From Gemmatimonadota bacterium (GTDB lineage Bacteria > Latescibacterota > UBA2968 > GCA-2709665): a DNA stretch of 64,000 bases. This document shows, piece by piece, positions 12,178 to 63,802 of the stretch. The stretch's first letter is position 1, and every line of letters begins with the position of its first letter. The notes under the pieces are model-generated. The model was not told the origin of the DNA and made no database searches. It was given only the letters and a program-made list of their open reading frames with translations. Where the stretch lies: assembly GCA_028874335.1 (NCBI GenBank), contig JAPPJY010000013.1, positions 6,526 to 70,525 of the forward strand, read 5' to 3'. Position numbers and translations under genes: made by a program.

Positions 12178-12256
12178 GATGCTCGTCTCTCTTTTCGGCT
12201 CATCGCTGACAGATGCCATAGAAAATACGCAATCCACCTTCTCTGTCAAGGATTCA

Positions 12257-12447
12257 CCTCAATTCCGCAAAAGCCGTAACGCGGCACCGCGACGAAACCT
12301 TTCGAAACGGGCCAAAATGGTCATCATGAAGCACGTTTTTTCCGTTCACGTCCAGTGTCCTGGTGTATCCTGGTAATCAGCAGTCTAATCGCCGTTATTA
12401 ACTCGCACATATTCGAACTAACATCCCCGAAAAATGACGAATCAAGG
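12257..12447 (+). mobile_element. MITE-like element, family A, copy 1
   Basis: ~90% identical by manual alignment (about 20 mismatches in ~190 nt) to 48426-48615. Imperfect TIR CCTCAATTCC...GGAATCAAGG. Flanked by the direct repeat TTCA (12253-12256 and 12448-12451). Confidence 0.85.
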
Positions 12448-12479
12448 TTCAGCATTGGAAAAACACAAGGAGCGCGAGG

Positions 12480-15923: not shown

Positions 15924-16646
15924 ATGCGTCCCGCTTCAAAAGAACAGACGCTGGACCTGCGTGAAAAAGGCAAACCCATTAGCGGACAGATACAGGCCAG
16001 CAACCGGCGGCTTTTCATGCAGTTGCACGTCTATGAAAACTGCCCGCGCCCGGACACGCTTGCGGACGCACTCCGCGAATCCGGGATCGACGCCGTCCTG
16101 TACGCGGACCTGAACAATCCATCCGGCGTTGGCATTCTTGCGCTATCCGAATCTCCCGATGCGTTCGCGGGGCAAATCCGCACATTGCTGAATGCCGGTC
16201 CGTTCGCTGAACTTCAACGCAATCCCCACCTCACCATGTTCGGGAGAACCTACGCCCACGGTTACGAGCCCGATCTTTTGGAAACGCTGTTGCGAAAGCC
16301 ACGCAGTAAGGTCCTTAACCCGGACTGGCCCTGGGCCGTATGGTATCCGTTGCGCCGCAAGCCCGAGTTCGGACTGCTGCCTGGTGAGGATCTGCGCGGG
16401 ATTATGGGTGAACATGCCAGAATCGGGCGGGCATACGCCGAGGCAGGTTTTGCCCAGGACATCCGCCTGGCCTGCTATGGCCTGGACCGCAACGACAACG
16501 ACTTCGTCATCGGACTGCTGGGGCCCGAGTTGCACCCGCTCTCGCACGTCGTGCAGGAAATGCGAAAGACCCGGCAGACCGCGCAATACGTGCAATCTCT
16601 CGGACCGTTCTTCGTTGGTAAAGCTGTCTGGCAGACGCCTCTCTAA
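15924..16646 (+). CDS. Chlorite dismutase-family (Cld/HemQ-like) protein
   Basis: WAVWYPLRRKPEF..L...DLRGIMGEHARIG......DIRLACYGLD.NDNDFV.GLLG.EL..LSHVVQEMRKT....Y....GPFFVG is the Cld-family C-terminal domain pattern. Confidence 0.7.
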   Translation: MRPASKEQTLDLREKGKPISGQIQASNRRLFMQLHVYENCPRPDTLADALRESGIDAVLYADLNNPSGVGILALSESPDAFAGQIRTLLNAGPFAELQRNPHLTMFGRTYAHGYEPDLLETLLRKPRSKVLNPDWPWAVWYPLRRKPEFGLLPGEDLRGIMGEHARIGRAYAEAGFAQDIRLACYGLDRNDNDFVIGLLGPELHPLSHVVQEMRKTRQTAQYVQSLGPFFVGKAVWQTPL

Positions 16647-16803
16647 CAGCCCGTTGAAAAAGTCCATCCTGGCTACGGCCGGCCCTTGCGGTCGAAATAC
16701 TGCGTTGCGGTCCCTCGCCGAATCGCAGCCGAATCGCAGGATGGGACTCGGTCGCGCGTCCTGTCTTCGACCTCGCCTGCAGAGCGACTTTATCAACGGA
16801 CTG
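16647..16803 (+). mobile_element. MITE-like element, family C, copy 1
   Basis: TIR CAGCCCGTTGAAAAAGTC...GACTTTATCAACGGACTG. Flanked by CTAA (16643-16646, containing the TAA stop of the Cld-like gene) and CTAA (16804-16807). An inverted full-length copy lies at 37824-37983. Confidence 0.85.
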
Positions 16804-16846
16804 CTAACACCTGGGAAGAAGGACAACAAGGTTACCCGACATTGCC

Positions 16847-23301: not shown

Positions 23302-23516
23302 CCTCGATTCGCAATTATCCGGGGACAAGAATGTCGAATATATACTGAAGAACAAGGGCGAATTGGCGTCAAGCGTCCCAGATAATTGAGGTCACTGGAC
23401 GTCAAGGGAAATTTCATCCATTCGAACGACCTCAATGCCCGGTTTCGCACCGACACCTTCTGTGCCTTTTGTGCTTTTTGTGGTAAATTCAGCGGTTGTT
23501 TTATTTCGAATTGAGG
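23302..23516 (-). mobile_element. MITE-like element, family A, copy 4 (diverged)
   Basis: Alignable end to end with 58072-58272 (shared blocks ACCxxGATTCG, GGTCACTGGACGT, CTTTTTGxGG.AATT). Ends CCTCGATTCG...CGAATTGAGG. Flanked by TTAA (23298-23301) and TTAA (23517-23520). Confidence 0.65.
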
Positions 23517-33300: not shown

Positions 33301-33598
33301 CCTCCGCCTCGACCTCCCTGACCTCGCCCTCCAGTTCCGTGATTTCGTCCAGCAGCGAGGAGCGGTCCATCTCCTCCTCGCTCTTCAGCGCCTCCCGCAT
33401 CTCATCGAGCTGTTCCGTGTATTCGGCTGTCGCGTCCCGCAACCTCTGCCTGAATTCGGTCGTCTTGCCGCGAAGGTCCACTTCGGAGAGCGAAGCAAAC
33501 GACTCGCATAGCCCGTTTATTCTTTCGACCGTCGGCCAGAGTTTCTTCAGATCCCGATCGTATTTGGTCCCGAATACTTTCTTGATCACACCCATCAT
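30368..33598 (-). CDS. secA: Preprotein translocase ATPase SecA
   Basis: 1076 aa. [11 protein letters not shown] Walker [62 protein letters not shown]-terminal zinc motif [14 protein letters not shown]. Confidence 0.98.
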
Positions 33599-33633
33599 AA
33601 GCGCGTATCCACCGATTATCGCCGAAACCTTAA

Positions 33634-33703
33634 CAGTCCGTTGACAATGCGGATCTGCAGGCGAGGCAGTGTCCCGTCCCGGATCGGCTCTCTCAACCCA
33701 TTG
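33634..33703 (-). mobile_element. MITE-like element, family C, copy 4 (short, diverged)
   Basis: CAGTCCGTTGACAATGCGGATCTGCAGGCGAGG...GGCTCTCTCAACCCATTG aligns with both ends of 37824-37983. Flanks are TTAA (33630-33633) and TCAA (33704-33707). The latter contains the nusB stop codon. Confidence 0.6.
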
Positions 33704-34132
33704 TCAATCCGCGGCTTCCGCAAGGATTCCTTTCTGTCTGACCAGCGCATCCAGGATTCCGTTGATGAACGTCGGCGCCTTCTCCACGCTGTACCGCCTG
33801 GCGAGCTCGATCGCTTCGTTCATCGATACCTTGACCGGAATATTGTCGAATGCGAGCATTTCCGTAAGCGCCATCCAGAGCAGGATCCGGTCGATCCTCG
33901 AGATCCGTTCCAGCGCCCAGTTCCGTGAAATCCCTTCTACCAGACCGTCCAGTTCGTCTTTGCGCGTCCAGGTTTCCCGACCAAGCGCGTGGGCGAATTC
34001 CGCGGCTTCATCCGTCAAACCGGCGCGAAGCGCCATGGCATGGAGCGTCTGCTGTACGGGGTCTCCCGAACTCTCGCTCCAATACAGCGCCTGCAGCGCA
34101 ACTTCGCGGGCTTTTCGTCGCGAACCCGTCAT
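33704..34132 (-). CDS. nusB: Transcription antitermination factor NusB
   Basis: [13 protein letters not shown]...; start Met at 34132 overlaps the ribH stop (ATGA). Confidence 0.9.
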
Positions 34133-37770: not shown

Positions 37771-37823
37771 AAACCGCCCTGTATCGCCGGGAAGATGAAT
37801 GGCCAGGCGTGGACGAGGCTTAG

Positions 37824-37983
37824 CAGTCCGTTGGAAAAGTCGCTCTGCAGGCGAGGCCGAGCCATTGTGGTCGAAGACAAGGCGCGCAACCGAGTCCCAT
37901 CCTGCGATTCGGCGAGGGCGCGCAACGCAGTATTTCGACCGCAAGGGCCGGCCGTAGCCCGGATGGGCTTTTTCAACGGGCTG
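37824..37983 (-). mobile_element. MITE-like element, family C, copy 2
   Basis: Reverse complement of 16647-16803 along its whole length. Flanks are TTAG (37820-37823) and TTAC (37984-37987). The latter contains the TAA stop of the upstream minus-strand gene. Confidence 0.85.
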
Positions 37984-40053
37984 TTACTTGAGGTCGACCG
38001 TCGCTGTGCCTACCCCCACGTTGCCCAGCGCATCGGTCGCACGGACGACGACCGTGTATTCCCCCGCCGCCAGATCCTGAATTTCGAAACGCAAGGATTC
38101 CGTTCTGGAGTCGAATATACGATCGACTGGAAAGACCACCTTCCACGCTCCTGAATTCACCGCATAGGCCGCTTTCCAGAGCGGGCTCGCGGCGTCGTTC
38201 AGCGATCCCTCGATACGTACCCCGCCTGCAACCTGCCGTATCTGCAGCGCGACGGAGGGTGGTGTGTGGTCAAGATCGAACGGCCGGCTGACCATCTCGC
38301 CTGCCAGCGCGGTCTCCTCCGGATTGGTCAACCTGTCCGACGCCACCAACCGGACCAGCATCGTACCCTCGGGCGCGGACTCCGTGTGCCAATCGAAGGA
38401 ATTCGAACGCAGGTTTTCTTCCAGGAGTTTCCATCTTTTCTCGGACAGACCCCGATAGTACAACGCATATACCAGCCCGTCGTTATTCGCGTCTTCCGCT
38501 TTCCATGAGATCCGCCAGACGCCCCTCTGGTTATCTGGCGCCTTTCGGCCCTTTCCGGGGTCCTTAGGCGCAGCGCCGTTGCCCTGCGCCTCGATGGGTG
38601 AGACGACGAGTGCGAGGACCCGCGGGCCCAGATTTTCCTGAAGTCCCACCAGACTCACTTCGCGAATCGTCGGAGTGGTCGTACCCGCCACGGATCTCAA
38701 CTCGGCCCGATACTGGAGGAATCTCGCAGGCGGACTGGATACCTGTCCTCCCTGGGAGACCGAAGACCATTCACTCCAGGTGTTGTCCGGTTTTACGCTG
38801 TTTCCCGAACGGGTCTGGAATTGAACGGACGCATCCGGGGCAGGTTCGGCATTCCACCTGATTTTACCCCATCTGGACACGAGGTGGAAATCTCTCACCC
38901 TGGATTCCAGCCTGCCTTCGCGCGCGAACGCCTTTCCCAACCGATACACTTTTCCGGCTCCAGCGGTTCCCAACCAGAAGTCCCCGGAGTTTGACCGGCA
39001 GAACACCCATGGTTGAACGTCTTTCAGCCGGGTCAGCAGCGTCGCCCTGCCGGACAGGTCCACGCGATAGATGCTCCCCCTGTCTCCAGTCAGCACCGTA
39101 ATCTCCCGATCGTCCGCATGCAATGCCAGAAGCATCGGCTCGTCCACCGTCCATAGACGAACCGCCGCACCCGAAGGGCGTATCGCATACAGCACGGAAG
39201 CCTGCCGGGAGGAAGCGGACCCCTGGCCCTTGGCGGATTGTTGAGACGCGCCCTTTCCGCCCCCCTTCGAACGTTTGGACATTGCGCCCGCGAACAGGGT
39301 CCCATCCGTTCCCATCGCCAGCGCGTGGATTTCATCTTCCGCGGCGTCGTACAATACTTCCACCCTTCCCGCAACGTTGACACGGTAGACCAGTCCGCTC
39401 TGGTCCGTGCCGGCGTACACCCTGCCGCCGGCGTCCCGGATCAGCGACACCACATTGTGGTCTTCGCTTTTATATACCTCGTCGACCTCTCCCGCCGCGG
39501 AGATGCGCAGGATTCGTCCGTGTCTGCCGCCGGTGGCCGCGTACAGGCCTCCGTTTCCATCCACAACCAACGCCCAGACGTGTTCGTCTCCGGTTCGACA
39601 AAACGTCTCGGGTTCTTTGCCCTGAACGATCCTGTATACAATACCGTCCGGGGAGGAGCCGGCATAGAGTGTCCCGTCCGTTCCCACCGCGAGACTGAAA
39701 ATGGCCACTTCGGGCGAATCGAAGAGGAGCGTCGGCTCTCCCGCGCCATCAAAGGCGAAAATCTTCCCGCCGTTGCCCGTTGCAATAAACAGGCGACCGC
39801 CTCGCCCCTCCGCGAGTGCCCAGACGAATTCCTCTCCCGTATTCGCCGCGACCTGCAACTCGGGCGCCAGCAACACCGCGCCGTCTCTGGTTATTGAGAC
39901 ACCGTCGGCTTCGCCCCTGGCGAAGGCCTTCTGCGTGTGGTCGCGCCATACGACAGGCTCAACGCCGTCCGTTGGAATCAGAAGGCAGTTGAGCAGAAAG
40001 CACAGGCTCATCAGCAATATACGATAAACGGCATGTCGATTTTCTCGATCCAA
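37984..40053 (-). CDS. Secreted beta-propeller protein with C-terminal Fn3/Ig-like domains, hypothetical
   Basis: N-terminal hydrophobic signal/anchor. About 7 repeats of the L(Y/F)AG(T/S)..G.(I/V)YR(I/V) type. C-terminal Ig-like segment ...YTVVVRATDALGNVG. Confidence 0.7.
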   Translation of the reverse strand: MDRENRHAVYRILLMSLCFLLNCLLIPTDGVEPVVWRDHTQKAFARGEADGVSITRDGAVLLAPELQVAANTGEEFVWALAEGRGGRLFIATGNGGKIFAFDGAGEPTLLFDSPEVAIFSLAVGTDGTLYAGSSPDGIVYRIVQGKEPETFCRTGDEHVWALVVDGNGGLYAATGGRHGRILRISAAGEVDEVYKSEDHNVVSLIRDAGGRVYAGTDQSGLVYRVNVAGRVEVLYDAAEDEIHALAMGTDGTLFAGAMSKRSKGGGKGASQQSAKGQGSASSRQASVLYAIRPSGAAVRLWTVDEPMLLALHADDREITVLTGDRGSIYRVDLSGRATLLTRLKDVQPWVFCRSNSGDFWLGTAGAGKVYRLGKAFAREGRLESRVRDFHLVSRWGKIRWNAEPAPDASVQFQTRSGNSVKPDNTWSEWSSVSQGGQVSSPPARFLQYRAELRSVAGTTTPTIREVSLVGLQENLGPRVLALVVSPIEAQGNGAAPKDPGKGRKAPDNQRGVWRISWKAEDANNDGLVYALYYRGLSEKRWKLLEENLRSNSFDWHTESAPEGTMLVRLVASDRLTNPEETALAGEMVSRPFDLDHTPPSVALQIRQVAGGVRIEGSLNDAASPLWKAAYAVNSGAWKVVFPVDRIFDSRTESLRFEIQDLAAGEYTVVVRATDALGNVGVGTATVDLK

Positions 40054-48122: not shown

Positions 48123-48425
48123 CCCTTTACCCTCAATGAATGAGACCGCGATCGGCGGCAGCGTATGGAATCAGTCCTTGCCCGCCCTGCCCCGCCCGGC
48201 GTGATCCGGCGCCTCCTGACGCCGTCAGTGCCTGAACCGCGGGACACACAGAATATACCCAATGCTCCGGCTGAATCAACCCCGCGCAAACCCAACTTGA
48301 CATTACGGTGTTCCGTCCCATAAATTCCTCACCATTCTTGGGCCGATGTAACACAGGAACACAAACCCGGGACAGGCGGCCAATCTCCGATCCCTTACCC
48401 GTGACGGGTTTCCGGGAGGCATTAG

Positions 48426-48615
48426 CCTCAATTCCGCAAAAGCCGCAACGCGGCACCGCGACGAAACCCTTCGAAACAGGCCGAAATGGTCGTCATGAAG
48501 GACATTCTTTCAGTTCACGTACAGTGTCCCGGTGTATCCTGGTAATCAGCAGTTTAATCGCCTTTTTAACTGACACATATTCGAATTAACGTCCTCGAAA
48601 AATGAGGAATCAAGG
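48426..48615 (+). mobile_element. MITE-like element, family A, copy 2
   Basis: See copy 1. Flanked by TTAG (48422-48425) and TTAG (48616-48619). It ends 6 nt before the SDR start codon. Confidence 0.85.
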
Positions 48616-48621
48616 TTAGAT

Positions 48622-49353
48622 ATGTCGAAGCTCGAAGGGAAAGTCGCGGTGGTAACCGGTGGGAACCAGGGCATCGGGAAGGGAATTGCGCGCGCGCTGG
48701 CCAAAGAGGGCGCGAATCTGGTGTTGACGGCCAGAACGGTCGGAAAACTCGAATCAGCGGCCGAAGAAATAAGGGCGGAGGGCGTGGAGGCGATCGCCGC
48801 CGCCGCAGACGTTACCGACGAATCGCAGGTGCAGGCGGTGTTCGCGAAGACGATGGATCGATTCGGGAGGGTGGATGTGCTGGTGAACAACGCTGCGGCC
48901 TTTGACGGGGGACGAATCGACGAACTCTCCCTGTCAGAATGGGACTGGGCGATGGCGGTGAACCTGCGCGGACCCTTTCTCTGCACGCGGGCGGCTTTCC
49001 GCATCATGAAGGCACAGGGCGGAGGCCGGATCATCAACATCGGCAGCATTTCCGCACAGCGCGTCCGCCCGAATTCCGCTCCCTACAGCACCAGCAAATT
49101 CGGGATTACCGGCCTTACGCATGCCACCGCGCTGGACGGACGGGACTTCGGGATTGTCTGCTCCTGCCTGCACCCCGGCAACACGCTGGTGGAACGCCGC
49201 GAGGAATCGGACGCGCCCACGGACGACGAACCGATGATGACCGTGGATGAATTGGCTCAGGCCGCGGTAACCATGGCGACGCTGCCGCTCCACGTGAATA
49301 TGCTGGAGGCGATCGTGTTGCCCGTCGGACAGCTGTACGTTGGTAGAGGTTGA
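48622..49353 (+). CDS. SDR-family oxidoreductase
   Basis: KVAVVTGGNQGIGKGIA, NNAA, YSTSKFG motifs. Confidence 0.88.
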   Translation: MSKLEGKVAVVTGGNQGIGKGIARALAKEGANLVLTARTVGKLESAAEEIRAEGVEAIAAAADVTDESQVQAVFAKTMDRFGRVDVLVNNAAAFDGGRIDELSLSEWDWAMAVNLRGPFLCTRAAFRIMKAQGGGRIINIGSISAQRVRPNSAPYSTSKFGITGLTHATALDGRDFGIVCSCLHPGNTLVERREESDAPTDDEPMMTVDELAQAAVTMATLPLHVNMLEAIVLPVGQLYVGRG

Positions 49354-54442: not shown

Positions 54443-55705
54443 GTGGACATCTTGAAAGATCTGGATTTTCGGGGGTACCTCTTTCAGGTAACCGATCCCG
54501 ACGGACTCGAAGCGCGGCTGGCCGGCGGGCCCATAACGCTTTATTCAGGGTTCGACCCCACGGCCGACAGTTTGCACGTGGGCAACCTGATACCCATTCT
54601 CGGATTGCGGCGGTTTCAACTGGCCGGGCATCATGCGATCGGGCTTATCGGGGGAGGCACGGGTCTGATAGGCGATCCGAGCGGCAGCAAGGAAGAACGT
54701 CCGTTGAACCCGCCCGAGTTGATCGCGGAATATACGGGAAGACTCGCAGAGCAACTCGCCAGGTTTCTCGATTTTGAGACCGGAGCCAATCCCGCCCGGG
54801 TGGTCAGCAATCTGGGATGGCTCTCCGAACTGAAGGCGATCGACTTCCTGAGGGACACGGGCAAGCACTTCTCCATGGGCTATATGCTGGCGAAAGAGTC
54901 CGTGGCTTCCCGGCTGGAAACCGGAATCTCATTCACCGAGTTCAGCTATATGGTCATTCAGGCCTATGATTTCATGGAGTTGTTTCAGGCGCACGGATGC
55001 GAGCTCCAGATTGGCGGGAGCGATCAATGGGGCAATATTACAGCGGGAATCGAACTGATCCGGCGCCGGCTGGGCGGACAGGCGCACGGCCTGACGTTTC
55101 CACTGCTTGAGAAGGCAGACGGCTCCAAGTTCGGAAAGACGGCATCCGGCACCGTCTGGCTCGACGCTGGAAAAACGACGCCCTACCAGTTTTACCAGCA
55201 TTGGATCAATACGGACGACCGGGACGTCGTGTCGTTTCTGAAGCTGTTTACCTTTCTCTCCGGGAATGAAATCAGGAATCTGGAAACGGAAGTGACAGAA
55301 CATCCCGAAAAGCGAGAGGCGCAGCGGGTGCTGGCCGAGGAAGTCACCACGCTCGTACATGACAGATCCGCCACCGAAAGGGCGCGGCGGATTTCCGACG
55401 CGTTGTTCTACGGGGAACTGAGGGACCTGAGTGCGCGAGAGATCGAGGAAGGGTTCAGCGACGTGCCGTCTCAGGCGCTCAATGGCGTTTCAGGCGTGGG
55501 ACTGATGGATCTGCTGGTCAACGTCGGCATTTCATCTTCCATGCGCCAGGCGCGGGAAGATATCCGGTCCGGCGCGATATACGTCAATGGCCGGCGTTGC
55601 GCCGATACGGGCATGATGCTTGAACCCTCGGACAGAATCGCCGGCAGATACGTGGTCGTGCGCCGGGGCAAACGCCGCTACTTTCTCGTGCGCTGGAATC
55701 TCTGA
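54443..55705 (+). CDS. tyrS: Tyrosine--tRNA ligase
   Basis: GTG start. GFDPTADSLHVGNL (HIGH), KFGKTASG (KMSKS-like), C-terminal S4 domain. Confidence 0.95.
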   Translation: MDILKDLDFRGYLFQVTDPDGLEARLAGGPITLYSGFDPTADSLHVGNLIPILGLRRFQLAGHHAIGLIGGGTGLIGDPSGSKEERPLNPPELIAEYTGRLAEQLARFLDFETGANPARVVSNLGWLSELKAIDFLRDTGKHFSMGYMLAKESVASRLETGISFTEFSYMVIQAYDFMELFQAHGCELQIGGSDQWGNITAGIELIRRRLGGQAHGLTFPLLEKADGSKFGKTASGTVWLDAGKTTPYQFYQHWINTDDRDVVSFLKLFTFLSGNEIRNLETEVTEHPEKREAQRVLAEEVTTLVHDRSATERARRISDALFYGELRDLSAREIEEGFSDVPSQALNGVSGVGLMDLLVNVGISSSMRQAREDIRSGAIYVNGRRCADTGMMLEPSDRIAGRYVVVRRGKRRYFLVRWNL

Positions 55706-55711
55706 CCTGAG

Positions 55712-55793
55712 AAGCTGTCTTTAAATTCCCCGCGGTCTTCGCGCGGCTGCGAAAGCGGCGGTCGGGAACTCACCGGTAATTTTAAAACAGCTT
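55712..55793 (+). mobile_element. MITE-like element, family B, copy 1 (internal-deletion derivative)
   Basis: AAGCTGTCTTTAAATTCCCCGCGG...GGTAATTTTAAAACAGCTT. It contains only the two ends of the 186-nt copy at 59413-59598. Flanked by the perfect 5-bp direct repeat CTGAG (55707-55711 and 55794-55798). Confidence 0.9.
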
Positions 55794-55888
55794 CTGAGGA
55801 CGCGCGGCCGCGGATGCGTATCGAAGAGCGGTGCAGATGATTAACAGCCGAAACCCATCGTGAATGTCATCAGGAGAGGAACCTTTCA

Positions 55889-56866: not shown

Positions 56867-58071
56867 TGCTCAACAGAGATGAAGCCGCACGGACGTGGCC
56901 CGATGCCAGGGGACACTTCGGACCCTACGGCGGGCGCTATGTGCCGGAGACGTTGATGCCGTTGCTCGAGGACCTGGAATCAGCCTACCGCGACGCGAGT
57001 GACCGTCCGGATTTCCGCGAGGAACTGGACCGTTATCTCAGGGAATTTGTCGGAAGGCCCACGTCACTCTATTTCGCACAGCGACTGACCGAAGAACTGG
57101 GCGGGGCCAGAATCTATCTGAAACGGGAGGACCTCGCCCACACCGGCGCGCACAAGATAAACAACACGATGGGGCAGATTCTGCTTGCCAGGCGCATGGG
57201 AAAAACACGGATCATCGCCGAAACGGGCGCCGGGCAGCACGGTGTGGCGACGGCGACCGTAGCTGCGATGTTCGGACTGAAGTGCGAGATTTACATGGGC
57301 ACCGAGGACATGGACCGGCAGGCGTTGAATGTGTTCCGGATGCGGCTCCTGGGCGCCAAAGTAACCGGCGTGGAATCGGGAAGCAGGACGCTCAAGGATG
57401 CGATCAACGAGGCAATCCGGGACTGGGTGACGAACGTGGACGATACGTTCTATATTTTCGGATCCGTCCTGGGACCTCACCCGTATCCGATGATCGTACG
57501 GGATTTTCAACGGGTGATCGGGGTGGAGACCCGCGCGCAGATCCTGCGGGCCGAAGGCCGGTTGCCGGACTGTCTGATCGCATGTGTCGGCGGCGGCAGC
57601 AATTCGATGGGGCTGTTTCACGCGTTTCTGGACGATGCGGACGTGCGCATGATCGGCGTCGAAGCGGGAGGCCATGGCATTGCCTCCGGCGACCACGCCG
57701 CCCGGTTTCAGGGAGGAGATCTCGGCGTGTTGCACGGGGCGAGGATCTACCTCCTGCAGGACGAGGACGGGCAGATCGCACTGACCCATTCGGTATCGGC
57801 AGGCCTGGACTATTCCGGCGTGGGCCCCGAGCACTGTCTCCTGCGGGATGAGGGCCGGATCGAGTATGCGTATGCAACCGACGACGAAGCCCTGAAGGGG
57901 TTTCAACTGTTGAGTCGCACGGAGGGTATCATTCCAGCACTGGAAAGCGCGCACGCGATCGCGCACGTGTCGAAAGCGGCGCCGGCAATGGACAGGGATG
58001 CTATAATCGTGGCGAATCTCTCAGGCCGCGGCGACAAGGACGTACAGCAGGCGGCGAAGTACCTGGACTGA
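56866..58071 (+). CDS. trpB: Tryptophan synthase beta chain
   Basis: GTG at 56866 in ORF 56626..58071. [24 protein letters not shown] (PLP Lys), [21 protein letters not shown]. Confidence 0.95.
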
Positions 58072-58272
58072 CCATGATTCGTATGTTTTCGGGTACGTTA
58101 ATTCGTATATGTGCAAGTAGATAAAGGCGATTAAACTGCGGATTACCAGGATAAACCTGGTCACTGGACGTGAACGGAAGAAATGGCCTACCTGACAACC
58201 ATTTCGGCCCGTTTCGGAAAGTTTCGTCGCGGTGCCGCGTTGCGGTTTTTGCGGAATTAAGGCTAACAGCCC
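58072..58272 (-). mobile_element. MITE-like element, family A, copy 3
   Basis: Reverse complement aligns end to end with copies 1 and 2. Flanks are CTGA (58068-58071, containing the trpB TGA stop) and CTAA (58273-58276). Confidence 0.85.
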
Positions 58273-58313
58273 GTTTGGTTTACCGGGCCGGGTCGAATCA
58301 CGGAGTTGTACTG

Positions 58314-59126: not shown

Positions 59127-59385
59127 AGACTGGCGCAGGGAAATCGACATCCTGGACCAGAAGCTGCTGGAGCTTCTGAATCGACGAGCCGAATGCGCCA
59201 TGGAAATCGGCAGGATCAAGCAGGCTATCGAACAACCGATCTTCGTGCCGGAACGTGAGAAGTCGATCCTGAACCGGATACTTGAACTGAACGAGGGGCC
59301 CACGGACGACGAGGCGGTGCGACGGATCTTTCAGCAGATCATCGATGAGTCCAGGCGCCTCATGCAGAAGAATCAGGAAAGCTAA
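59116..59385 (+). CDS. AroQ-class chorismate mutase
   Basis: AAGGGAG precedes the ATG at 59116. LEDWRREIDILDQKLLELLNRRAECAMEIGRIK......P.RE..IL is the CM type 2 helix pattern. 11-nt overlap with trpA. Confidence 0.85.
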   Translation: MDLEDWRREIDILDQKLLELLNRRAECAMEIGRIKQAIEQPIFVPEREKSILNRILELNEGPTDDEAVRRIFQQIIDESRRLMQKNQES

Positions 59386-59412
59386 TCAGGGGCGAACCTT
59401 TCTAAACCTTAG

Positions 59413-59598
59413 AAGCTGTCTTAAAATTCCCAGCGGTCTTCGCACGGCTGCAAAAGCGCCGGTCGGCGTTGGGCAAATCCACCCAAGAGTGGCGAGGGGC
59501 GCGCAGCCACGATACATTGAATATGGGCGGATTCTCCCGCCTTGACCGCCGCTTTTTCGCTCGTGCTCGGGAACTCACCGGTAATATTAAAACAGCTT
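59413..59598 (+). mobile_element. MITE-like element, family B, copy 2 (full length)
   Basis: TIR AAGCTGTCTTAAAATTCC...GGTAATATTAAAACAGCTT. Flanked by the perfect 5-bp direct repeat CTTAG (59408-59412 and 59599-59603). Confidence 0.9.
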
Positions 59599-59668
59599 CT
59601 TAGCTCGAGATCGGTCGGGACGTTTCGTCACGTTTGAAGAACGAGGTTAGTCACGGAGTCGGCAGCGC

Positions 59669-60775: not shown

Positions 60776-61888
60776 ATGGCCAACGATCCTCCTTTTGCGC
60801 GCGATGCGATTGCAGTTGTCGGGGTGGGGCTGATTGGCGGTTCGCTCGGGCTGGCGCTCAAGGGTCTGGGCATCGGAAGTCGTATCGTCGGCATCAGCCG
60901 GCAGGAGACCCTGGACGCGGCCTTCGCGCTGGATGTTATCGACGCGGGCTATCGCTATGAGGACCTCGAATCCGGGATTCGCGATGCGGCGCTGGTTTTC
61001 CTGTGCACGCCCATCGTCCGTATTCTGGACATGCTGCCTGAGGTGCTGGGAGCGGCGCGGCAGGATGCGCTCGTGACGGATGTCGGCAGCACCAAGCATG
61101 CGATTGTCTCCACGGCGACGGCCCACGCACGGGATGGCGTGCATTTCGTCGGCGGGCACCCGATGGCCGGTTCCGAGCATCGCGGGGTGGGCGCGGCGGA
61201 CCCGTTCCTTTTTCAGAATGCGATTTATGTGTTGACGCCGTCGCCGGACACGCCCGATATCGTGGTTGAAAAGCTCGCGCGTCTCGTAAGGGCGTTCGGG
61301 GCCAGACCGATGAAGATGACGCCCCGGGAACACGACCGCGCGGCGGCGGCGGTAAGCCACCTGCCGCAGATGATGGCCACAAGCCTGGTGTCCATGGTCG
61401 GAAGGATGACGGAAGACGAAGGGCTGCCGATTCGAATGGCGGCGGGGGGGTTTCGGGACCTGACGCGCATTGCTTCCAGTCCATATGAAATGTGGCGGGA
61501 CATCTGCCATACGAACGCGGCCCCGATCCGGGAGATGATCGATCTTTATATAGAGTCGCTTTCGGCAATTCGCTCGGCCGTGGACCGCGAACGCCTGGAA
61601 CAGGCATTTGCCTATGCGAATCGAATACGCGGACAGATCCCGAAGGACTCCAAGGGATTCCTGCATCCACTGCACGAAATCCTCCTCCTGGCGGAGGACA
61701 GGCCGGGCGTGATCGCCCACGTCGCCAGGACACTGGCCGGAGAGAATATCAACATAAACGACATCGAGGTGCTGAACGTGCGCGAGGGGGAAGGGGGCAC
61801 GATTCGGATGGGGTTCGATTCACGTTCGTGCGCGGAACGAGCCGTTGACGTACTGGCGAAAGCGGGCTACAGCGTGAGATTGAGATAA
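60776..61888 (+). CDS. tyrA: Prephenate dehydrogenase with C-terminal ACT domain
   Basis: IAVVGVGLIGGSLG Rossmann motif, GGHPMAGSE, C-terminal ACT-like LLLAEDRPGVIAHVARTLAGENINI. Confidence 0.9.
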   Translation: MANDPPFARDAIAVVGVGLIGGSLGLALKGLGIGSRIVGISRQETLDAAFALDVIDAGYRYEDLESGIRDAALVFLCTPIVRILDMLPEVLGAARQDALVTDVGSTKHAIVSTATAHARDGVHFVGGHPMAGSEHRGVGAADPFLFQNAIYVLTPSPDTPDIVVEKLARLVRAFGARPMKMTPREHDRAAAAVSHLPQMMATSLVSMVGRMTEDEGLPIRMAAGGFRDLTRIASSPYEMWRDICHTNAAPIREMIDLYIESLSAIRSAVDRERLEQAFAYANRIRGQIPKDSKGFLHPLHEILLLAEDRPGVIAHVARTLAGENININDIEVLNVREGEGGTIRMGFDSRSCAERAVDVLAKAGYSVRLR

Positions 61889-61889
61889 G

Positions 61890-62048
61890 AAGCTGTTTTA
61901 AAATTCCTGGTGAGTCCCGAGCGCGAGCGAAAATGTGTCGGTCAAGGCGGGCAAAGGCGCCCATATTTGGGTATACGGGTGCTTTTGACCAACGCAGACC
62001 GACGGGTTTGCAGCCGCGCGAAGACCGCTGGGGGTTTTAAGACAGCTT
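61890..62048 (-). mobile_element. MITE-like element, family B, copy 3 (inverted)
   Basis: Aligns with the reverse complement of 59413-59598 at both ends; the centre is partly diverged or deleted. Flanks are ATAAG (61885-61889, containing the tyrA TAA stop) and CTAAA (62049-62053). Confidence 0.85.
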
Positions 62049-62131
62049 CTAAAGCGTAAGATCCGGAGACGATTGAACCGGAAAGATCGCTTTCCCTCCG
62101 CTGGCGACCGCATTATAAAGAAGGCCTCGTA

Positions 62132-63430: not shown

Positions 63431-63523
63431 TTCCTGCGCAACATTCAGATGCCCGCCTTGCGCTGCGGCGGCAGCCGGCCGTTGCAGGCGGCGCGGGTCA
63501 ATCTTCGGTACGAGGAGAGCCTT

Positions 63524-63664
63524 ATGAGACTGGTTGTCAGGTTATTCCTTCTGGCGCTGCTGGTGTTCCTGGGAGGCGTGGTCTTCATTCGGTACACCTA
63601 CAACTGTTCGTGGAAAGAGAGTTTCGCCATTGCCGACCAGTTTGTGTCGGACCTGACCCGTTGA
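63524..63664 (+). CDS. Small single-TM protein (46 aa), hypothetical
   Basis: GAGGAGAG (63511-63518) precedes the ATG at 63524. MRLVVRLFLLALLVFLGGVVFIRYTYN... Confidence 0.4.
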   Translation: MRLVVRLFLLALLVFLGGVVFIRYTYNCSWKESFAIADQFVSDLTR

Positions 63665-63711
63665 TAACGTCGCTCCGCAGGCGAGGCCGGTTGGGCTTTT
63701 TCGACGGGCTG
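63654..63711 (-). mobile_element. MITE-like element, family C, copy 3 (mini, internal deletion)
   Basis: GACCCGTTGATAACGTCGCTCCGCAGGCGAGGCCGG|TTGGGCTTTTTCGACGGGCTG joins the two ends of 37824-37983. No clean target duplication is visible. Confidence 0.6.
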
Positions 63712-63802
63712 ACGAGCAACGCGTTGCCAGTTTCGGTTTGGAGGAACTCCGGCTGGCAATGCGCGATAACCGGAACAGAGCACCAGGCCAGAGGAGTCTG
63801 TT

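Follow-up and report, generated by a model that had tools for sequence, protein, structure and literature searches.

Stop-codon coincidence of three MITE families in a Latescibacterota genome is largely predicted by target composition

The window analyzed here is a stretch of 64,000 nucleotides (contig JAPPJY010000013.1, our C84, positions 6526-70525; C84:6526-70525) from a Candidatus Latescibacterota metagenome-assembled genome (MAG; 5.43 Mb, 96 contigs, 59.3% GC; hereafter G000). It holds, as found by repeat search and direct reading, 11 copies of three families (A, B and C) of transposable elements of the miniature inverted-repeat type (MITEs), i.e., small elements bounded by terminal inverted repeats (TIRs) and target-site duplications (TSDs). 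Across the genome, the ends of these elements fall with single-nucleotide precision on the stop codons of neighboring genes, and we show that this coincidence is largely predicted by the composition of the short targets, with a reproducible residue of about 1.6-fold in family B only. The homing is to the k-mer, not to stop codons as such. We propose that short AT-rich targets, together with the purge of gene-breaking insertions, probably account for the coincidence, which would then be a compositional by-product.

MITE ends, stop codons and the availability of targets

The three families amount to about 466 loci genome-wide (A, 113; B, 200; C, 153), detected in G000 by blastn and by nhmmer with profiles made from full-length copies (our families A, B and C are those that an earlier note on the window had named C, A and B, respectively). 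The elements are non-coding and 160-191 bp long, and they are accompanied by many mini derivatives, a large number of which belong to family A (282 matches to its TIR genome-wide, 114 of them outside the nhmmer loci). Family A is bounded by CAGYCCGTTGA... and ...TCAACGGRCTG and generates a 4-bp YTAR duplication; family B, by CCTCAATTCC... and ...GAATCAAGG, with a 4-bp TTAR duplication; and family C, by GAAGCTGTYTTAAAA at both ends, with a 3-bp TNA duplication. In all three families the terminal bases are almost invariant between copies. Read from the flank into the TIR, the logos are Y-T-A-R followed by CAG... for family A; T-T-A-R followed by CCTCAATTCC (5' end) and Y-T-A-A followed by CCTTGATTC (3' end) for family B, the target of which is TTAR on both sides in the orientation of the element; and (C)-T-N-A followed by GAAGCTGT for family C, often within CTNAG, i.e., (C)TNA(G). 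The proposal of the earlier note that the elements home to sites of the TTAR/CTNAG type is borne out by these logos.

Identical TSD pairs were observed in 15 of 53 copies of family A, 76 of 133 of family B and 47 of 85 of family C. The TSD pairs of family B are TTAG/TTAG (38), TTAA/TTAA (30) and mixed (6), with no CTAA/CTAA among the commonest pairs tabulated, and its orientation is fixed relative to TTAG. As the fourth base changes in step on both sides of the element, the duplication of family B is 4 bp long; family C has 3-bp TSDs (TTA 28, TAA 9, TGA 7, TCA 2). A duplication of TA only, as in IS630-like elements, was considered for families A and B and rejected on account of the co-varying fourth base and the existence of TACA/TACA and TTCA/TTCA TSDs. 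With their TIRs, fixed-length TSDs, small non-coding multicopy nature and precise empty sites, families A, B and C are genuine MITEs, i.e., TIR/TSD transposons; they are new families that behave like known MITEs, and their mechanism is not new.

For every MITE end, we took the nearest stop codon that is read in the direction of the element and measured the offset from the end of that codon, using the 4372 genes (85% coding) that a home-made dicodon log-odds caller predicted in G000. The genome-wide tabulation of these offsets, which the earlier note had put forward as a check, displays one sharp spike, at 0, made up of 120 flush ends (35 of the 166 ends of family A, 64 of 331 for B and 21 of 238 for C). 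The ends lying 1-30 nt from a stop number 20 (A), 19 (B) and 19 (C), and the stop is located inside the element at 3 (A), 12 (B) and 9 (C) ends. Counting the elements with both ends defined, 18/53 of family A and 45/133 of family B (34% in both cases), and 15/85 of family C (18%), are flush with a stop; the corresponding values in the comparison genome described below (G001) are 6/22, 8/33 and 8/39. The 120 genes with a MITE exactly on their stop represent 2.7% of all genes, and 115 of them are strong gene calls. The share of genes with a flush MITE depends on how the gene ends: it is 11.8% for Y-TAR, 22% for CTAA and 7% for TAA-ending genes altogether, versus 0.8% for TGA-ending genes. Stop codon choice may thus modulate the exposure of a gene to the MITEs. 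Besides, at one gene end (e192) the MITE is of family B in G000 but of family A in G001, i.e., independent insertions at a hot spot, and six tandem MITE pairs have a common TSD.

The candidate targets are not evenly distributed. In 5.4 Mb there are 3600 copies of TTAA, 2083 of TTAG, 2000 of CTAA and 802 of CTAG, and stop codons represent 8-22% of the tolerated copies of these four tetramers (those that no gene spans) and 6-8% of the tolerated TNA sites. In the 0-30 nt downstream of genes, 463 YTAR sites are the stop itself versus 316 elsewhere (about 59% stop). These numbers agree with the view of the earlier note that the target sites are rare and concentrated at gene ends. Compared with all tolerated sites of the same k-mer (null i), flush elements are about 3-fold in excess, with 18 observed versus 5.8 expected for family A (z = 5.4), 45 versus 13.4 for family B (z = 9.2) and 15 versus 5.4 for family C (z = 4.3); an enrichment over the availability of the tetramer, on which the earlier note had made its proposal depend, was therefore found. 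Much of this excess arises because MITEs are depleted (ratio 0.25-0.4) in "non-coding" stretches of more than 400 bp, which comprise 40% of the tolerated sites and may hold genes that the caller missed.

Two stricter comparisons were made. In the local one (null ii), k-mers coinciding with the stop (offset 0) were set against identical k-mers 1-30 nt downstream of it, with stratification by exact k-mer. Family A gave 33 observed versus 28.2 expected (z = 1.5) and family C gave odds ratios of 1.7 and 2.9, neither family reaching significance; the z values obtained in G001 with this local stratification are 1.3 for family A, 2.4 for family B and 1.6 for family C. In the comparison conditional on the intergenic region actually hit (null iii), the flush elements are 7 versus 7.0 expected for family A, 33 versus 29.0 for family B (z = 2.9) and 10 versus 9.4 for family C, the median intergenic region hit by family A or B offering just one candidate site.

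The origin of the stops was read from empty sites in G001 (OZ220733.1), the closest genome by TrpB (95% amino-acid identity), of which the first 2.8 Mb (51%) were used. G001 carries the same MITE families, with 95-100% identity to the consensus, and more distant relatives do not. The flanks of G000 elements mapped to 111 sites in G001, of which 84 are empty, 10 occupied and 17 rearranged. In the empty-site alignments of 24 flush elements, the target is present just once, as the stop codon of the orthologue (occupied/empty examples at flush sites being GTAA/GTAA, TTAG/TTAG, CTAA/CTGA and TTAA/GTAA), and an automated check placed the called gene end of the orthologue at the identical base in 21 of the 24 cases, one being at +6 and two unalignable. 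The reverse comparison (insertion in G001, empty site in G000) gave an identical gene end in 9 of 10 cases, hence 30 of 34 in both directions. As the gene ends are identical at the empty sites, the stops were in place before the elements, which inserted onto them; the comparison with a relative that the earlier note had suggested thus does reveal the pre-insertion stops. In 7 of the 24 polymorphic flush sites the codon is TAA in the occupied genome and TGA in the empty one, which fits with TGA-ending genes being poor targets.

After insertion, the gene-side copy of the target can drift between TAA and TGA (CTGA/CTAA at trpB, GTGA/ATAA at e158). The earlier note had taken the fact that both diverged TSD copies still spell stops as a sign of purifying selection. 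This holds for the gene-side copy, which is constrained; of selection on the far-side copy it says little, since translation does not end there, and the commonest transition is TAA<->TGA anyway, so that the argument is weak overall.

Transposases, proposed mechanism and competing explanations

A PF01609 search of G000 returned two transposase genes, both of the IS1380 family (NF033539, 211 and 382 bits; cut-off 180). One belongs to an insertion sequence (IS) of 1552 bp (C27:128463-130014) with TTAA/TTAA flanks and one open reading frame (ORF) of 482 amino acids, which scores 211.3 bits with NF033539 and 107.5 bits with PF13701 (DDE_Tnp_1_4; cut-off 34.7). Its ends, CCTTATTTCCGCAAAAA and CCTTGATTCATCAAAAAA, share 14 of 17 and 12 of 14 bases with those of MITE B. 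Judging from these shared termini, the C27 element appears to be the autonomous partner of family B, its transposase would mobilize family B, and family B would be a deletion derivative of an IS1380-family IS still resident in G000. The second IS1380-family IS of G000 (C90:18862-20505) has TTAG/TTAG flanks, and G001 has IS1380-family copies near 590254, 2062734 and 511401; these IS1380-family ISs of the lineage all exhibit 4-bp YTAR-type duplications (TTAA, TTAG, CTAG and CTAT), similar to the TTAA at which piggyBac inserts.

For families A and C, no transposase with their ends was found among the 14 DDE_Tnp_1 hits of G001. These hits (IS1380-like, 449-539 amino acids, and one IS5-like, 325 amino acids) were rejected as partners, their ends being unrelated; those of the single IS5-like IS in G001 are GGAAKSTCTGAT. 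Likewise, the PF01609 search found no IS5-type transposase bounded by A or C TIRs, with G000 giving only IS1380-like ORFs. Long pairs of A or C TIRs in G000 and G001 were also considered as autonomous elements and discarded, as they enclosed only ordinary genes.

In the mechanism that we propose, the MITEs would be moved in trans by DDE transposases that cut and duplicate short AT-rich targets, each of which reads as a stop (TNA on one strand, YTAR on both). Insertion would occur at the k-mer wherever it is located, and intragenic insertions would then be purged by selection. Because these k-mers are rare at 59% GC and their intragenic copies do not tolerate insertion, there is often no usable target but the stop in the vicinity of a gene end; and because the duplication leaves an intact gene-side stop, the protein is unchanged and the insertion near-neutral. 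Many insertions in regulatory or long non-coding DNA would also be removed, leaving survivors enriched at stops. We infer that it is this selection filter, not an insertion bias, that shapes the distribution.

Several points weigh against this proposal. Surviving insertions cannot formally separate insertion bias from selection; the home-made gene caller makes the "tolerated space" null approximate; no autonomous partner of family A or C was found in G000 or in the 2.8 Mb of G001; and, with the long non-coding regions excluded, a stop enrichment of about 2-fold stays in all three families. Furthermore, under the local null (ii), family B is at stops 49 times versus 31.4 expected (about 1.6-fold, z = 4.7), an excess also present in G001 (13 versus 8.3, z = 2.4), so that its preference for the stop is not explained by pure k-mer availability. 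This excess is what one would expect of a true homing to stop codons or gene ends, in which the transposase or a host factor reads more than the 3-4 bp target and an evolved safe harbor is used. Families A and C trend likewise in both genomes (z = 1.3-1.6), the high share (22%) of CTAA-ending genes with a flush MITE points in the same direction, and so does the independent use of one stop by separate families (B and an A fragment at trpB; e192). Nevertheless, we regard such a homing as improbable: the excess conditional on the intergenic region is 0 for families A and C and four elements for family B, 66-82% of the copies lie away from stops, about 20-37% lie at most 60 nt upstream of starts (at or above expectation), the flank logos have no strong signal outside the TSD, and the excess of family B may equally reflect selection against the splitting of short operon spacers. 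A similarly doubtful version restricts the preference to the IS1380-family IS and family B, which would have evolved the recognition of TTAR in a gene-end context, the stop being rebuilt by the 4-bp duplication. If true, a prokaryotic transposon related to piggyBac would exhibit punctuation-level targeting, which could account for the hundreds of copies that such elements attain although the genome is compact.

Two further explanations were weighed. The stops might have been created by the insertions, with MITEs hitting 3' coding ends and the duplicated TAR or TNA truncating the proteins, so that the coincidence would be an artefact of ORF calling. An in-frame ORF entering a YTAR or TNA duplication does end there, and 24 ends do run into elements; yet random frames predict about twice as many read-in as flush cases, as compared with the 24 read-in versus 120 flush cases observed, and the gene end is unchanged at 30 of the 34 empty orthologous sites. 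The few read-in ORFs and the empty sites rule out this model for the majority of the flush elements, and as a general explanation it is extremely unlikely. The elements might instead be retained at gene ends by positive selection, as terminators, stabilizers of messenger RNA or donors of ribosome-binding sites. Some copies do lie a few nucleotides from the next start (48616-48622; trpA, 9 nt), and the 3' end of family B (..AAGG) abuts stops more often than its 5' end (45 versus 19, p = 0.04). Against this, orientation is unbiased in families A and C, the transcript of the family-B copy that separates trpB from trpA does not outdo shuffled sequence in folding (z = 0), and most insertions are recent and lineage-specific (84/111 empty in the 95%-identical relative); we therefore deem such a host use very unlikely. 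A structured-RNA or terminator role was also dismissed, with the fold of family B being no better than shuffles and no Rfam match, FMN riboswitch included, anywhere in the window at gathering thresholds.

The copies in the window

The 11 copies of the window are listed in Table 1. Five of them carry the stop codon of a neighboring gene within their TSD, namely at the Cld-like (chlorite-dismutase-like), beta-propeller, nusB, trpB and tyrA genes. The earlier note had named six coincidences; these five stand, and the sixth, at tyrS, is 2 nt off. The identities of the neighbors (chlorite-dismutase-like, Reg_prop beta-propeller, NusB, TrpB, prephenate dehydrogenase [TyrA], TyrS, SecA and TrpA) were confirmed by Pfam.

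Table 1. Copies of MITE families A, B and C in the window, with their TSDs (left/right) and setting
Copy	Positions	Strand	Element	TSD	Setting
Family B	12253-12451	+	12257-12447	TTCA/TTCA	Between divergent genes, not at stop
Family A	16643-16807	+	16647-16803	CTAA/CTAA	Cld-like gene
Family B, diverged	23302-23453 (nhmmer match)	-			In leader of gene starting 23542, not at stop
Family A, decayed, 70 bp (nusB locus)	33630-33707	+	33634-33703	TTAA (33630-33633)/TCAA (33704-33707)	nusB
Family A	37820-37987	-	37824-37983	TTAG/TTAC	Beta-propeller gene
Family B	48422-48619	+	48426-48615	TTAG/TTAG	Not at stop
Family C, deletion derivative, 84 bp	55708-55797	+	55711-55794	TGA/TGA	tyrS
Family B	58068-58266	-	58072-58262	CTGA/CTAA (CTAA = 58263-58266)	trpB
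Family C	59409-59602	+	59412-59599	TTA/TTA	89-aa gene
Family C	61886-62052	-	61889-62049	TAA/TAA	tyrA
Mini-A, 58-bp derivative of family A	63653-63715	+			60-aa ORF

The stop of nusB, a TGA on the minus strand, corresponds to TCA at 33704-33706, inside the TCAA copy of the target; secA starts at 33598, also on the minus strand. G001 has no insertion at the nusB site, where the nusB strand shows ...GAC TGT TAA, with the TTAA target being the stop. Comparison of window positions 33596-33730 with G001 1395280-1395345 reveals that NusB of G001 has one more C-terminal codon (Cys) before the TAA in TTAA, and that the decayed copy of G000 has lost 3 nt (CAG) toward nusB, the stop of which is now TGA. 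On the plus strand, the Cld-like gene (15924-16646) stops with the TAA at 16644-16646, inside the CTAA copy; as this site is occupied in G001 as well, the insertion is shared and older. On the minus strand, the beta-propeller gene (37984-40017) stops with TAA (TTA at 37984-37986), inside TTAC, and its empty site in G001 (e14) reads CTCAAGTAAG, with the TAA stop at the identical base. The leader of the rib operon (ribD...nusB), at 37771-37987, consists mostly of this family-A MITE.

At tyrA, the TAA stop (61886-61888) is the TSD itself, and the empty site in G001 (e379) has TAG there. At trpB, the TGA stop (58069-58071) lies inside CTGA, and trpA starts at 58275, 9 nt past the right-hand TSD; G001 (e141) has TAG at the same codon and no MITE. 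A 31-nt family-A-like fragment (CAGCCCGTTTGG..., 58267-~58297) directly follows the trpB copy of family B, from which it follows that two MITE families used the same CTAA stop site. The spacing between trpB and trpA is about 200 nt in G000, and the two genes are adjacent in G001. A 60-amino-acid ORF (63482-63664) now stops at a TGA within the remnant TIR of the mini-A copy, and its counterpart in G001 ends with CGT TAA, the TTAA of which is the TSD of a mini-A copy there; ancestrally, mini-A was thus a sixth stop coincidence in the window.

In the case of tyrS, the stop TGA (55703-55705) is separated by 2 nt from the TSD TGA downstream of it (55708-55710), with which it is not coincident; G001 has GGA where G000 has the TGA of the target. 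The family-C copy at 59409-59602 is located 24 nt downstream of the stop of an 89-amino-acid gene ending at 59385, and the family-B site at 12253-12451 is empty in G001. At 48607-48624, the 3' end of the family-B copy at 48422-48619 (..GAATCAAGG) is followed by its TSD TTAG and, at a distance of 6 nt from that end, by the ATG (48622) of a short-chain dehydrogenase (SDR) gene, for which the terminal AAGG could act as the Shine-Dalgarno sequence. Apart from the MITEs, the window contains at 153-235 a tandem array of about 8-10 copies of an 8-bp unit (TCGTATTC/TCGCCTATTC-like).

Relation to known systems and significance

Bacterial MITEs derived from DDE insertion sequences, such as Correia/NEMIS, RUP and MITEAba12, have been reviewed (PMC2229807). 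Like them, families A, B and C are small, non-coding, bounded by TIRs and TSDs, present in high copy number and mostly intergenic, and family B shares its TIRs with a resident IS. Unlike most described bacterial MITEs, which generate TA or longer unspecific duplications, they generate a 3-4 bp duplication that is the stop codon, and they occupy, with about 466 loci and three families, an uncultured Latescibacterota lineage. In the literature searched we found nothing on MITEs in Latescibacterota and no genome-wide account of MITE target duplications being stop codons, the papers on Halobacterium and Haloquadratum having no bearing on the matter.

The IS1380 family (ISfinder) comprises elements of about 1.5-2 kb with a single ORF and direct repeats of 4-5 bp, and the putative partner of family B fits this description (about 1.55 kb, one ORF, 4-bp duplication, NF033539/PF13701). 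The direct repeat of IS1247 is 5 bp (PMC3281130), and IS1380 transposases are distant prokaryotic relatives of piggyBac (PMC10140906). The TTAA/TTAG target of family B resembles the TTAA of piggyBac, consistent with this kinship, but it is TTAR rather than strict TTAA (TTAG being as common) and the transposase is of the IS1380 type, so that family B is not a piggyBac member. The literature searched gave no evidence as to whether other IS1380 members share the TTAR specificity.

In the IS5 family (ISfinder), YTAR duplications occur in the IS5 group and TNA duplications in the IS1031 and ISL2 groups; PIF/Harbinger elements have TWA as their target. The YTAR and TNA duplications of families A and C, and their TIRs CAGCCCGTTGAAAAAG and GAAGCTGTCTTAAAAT, look IS5-like; we do not claim membership, as only the type of TSD is alike and no transposase with matching ends occurs in G000 or among the G001 hits.

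Gene 3' ends are also the targets of the tRNA/tmRNA-targeting integrases and of Tn7, which inserts downstream of glmS. The same safe-site logic applies, the gene end being duplicated or spared, but these systems use long specific sites and dedicated proteins, whereas here a 3-4 bp compositional target suffices. The nearest precedents for repeats on gene punctuation are, in Streptococcus pneumoniae, the BOX repeats, from which 36 coding sequences derive their stop codon (PMC3049150), and the MIRUs, which insert at start codons (PMC12548453). Both are, like our MITEs, small dispersed repeats with ends on gene punctuation and without obvious damage to the proteins. In BOX, however, the stop lies inside the repeat, whereas here the stop is what the element duplicates, and the original one stays with the gene; as for the MIRUs, their targets are start/stop overlaps, and they include a coupled ORF.

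The modest residual stop preference of family B is the only part of our findings that could hide something more, and family B suggests that an IS1380-family element, i.e., a prokaryotic relative of piggyBac, is specific for TTAR. For the annotation of such MAGs, it matters that the MITEs remodel the ends of genes, their leaders and the spacers within operons (such as trpB-trpA), and that a TGA stop confers near-immunity; the finding is also relevant to the use of insertion polymorphisms as strain markers in Latescibacterota. Together, these data support the proposal that, given an AT-rich target of 3-4 bp in the form of a stop, transposons can multiply into the hundreds in a genome that is gene-dense and GC-rich while leaving its genes unbroken.

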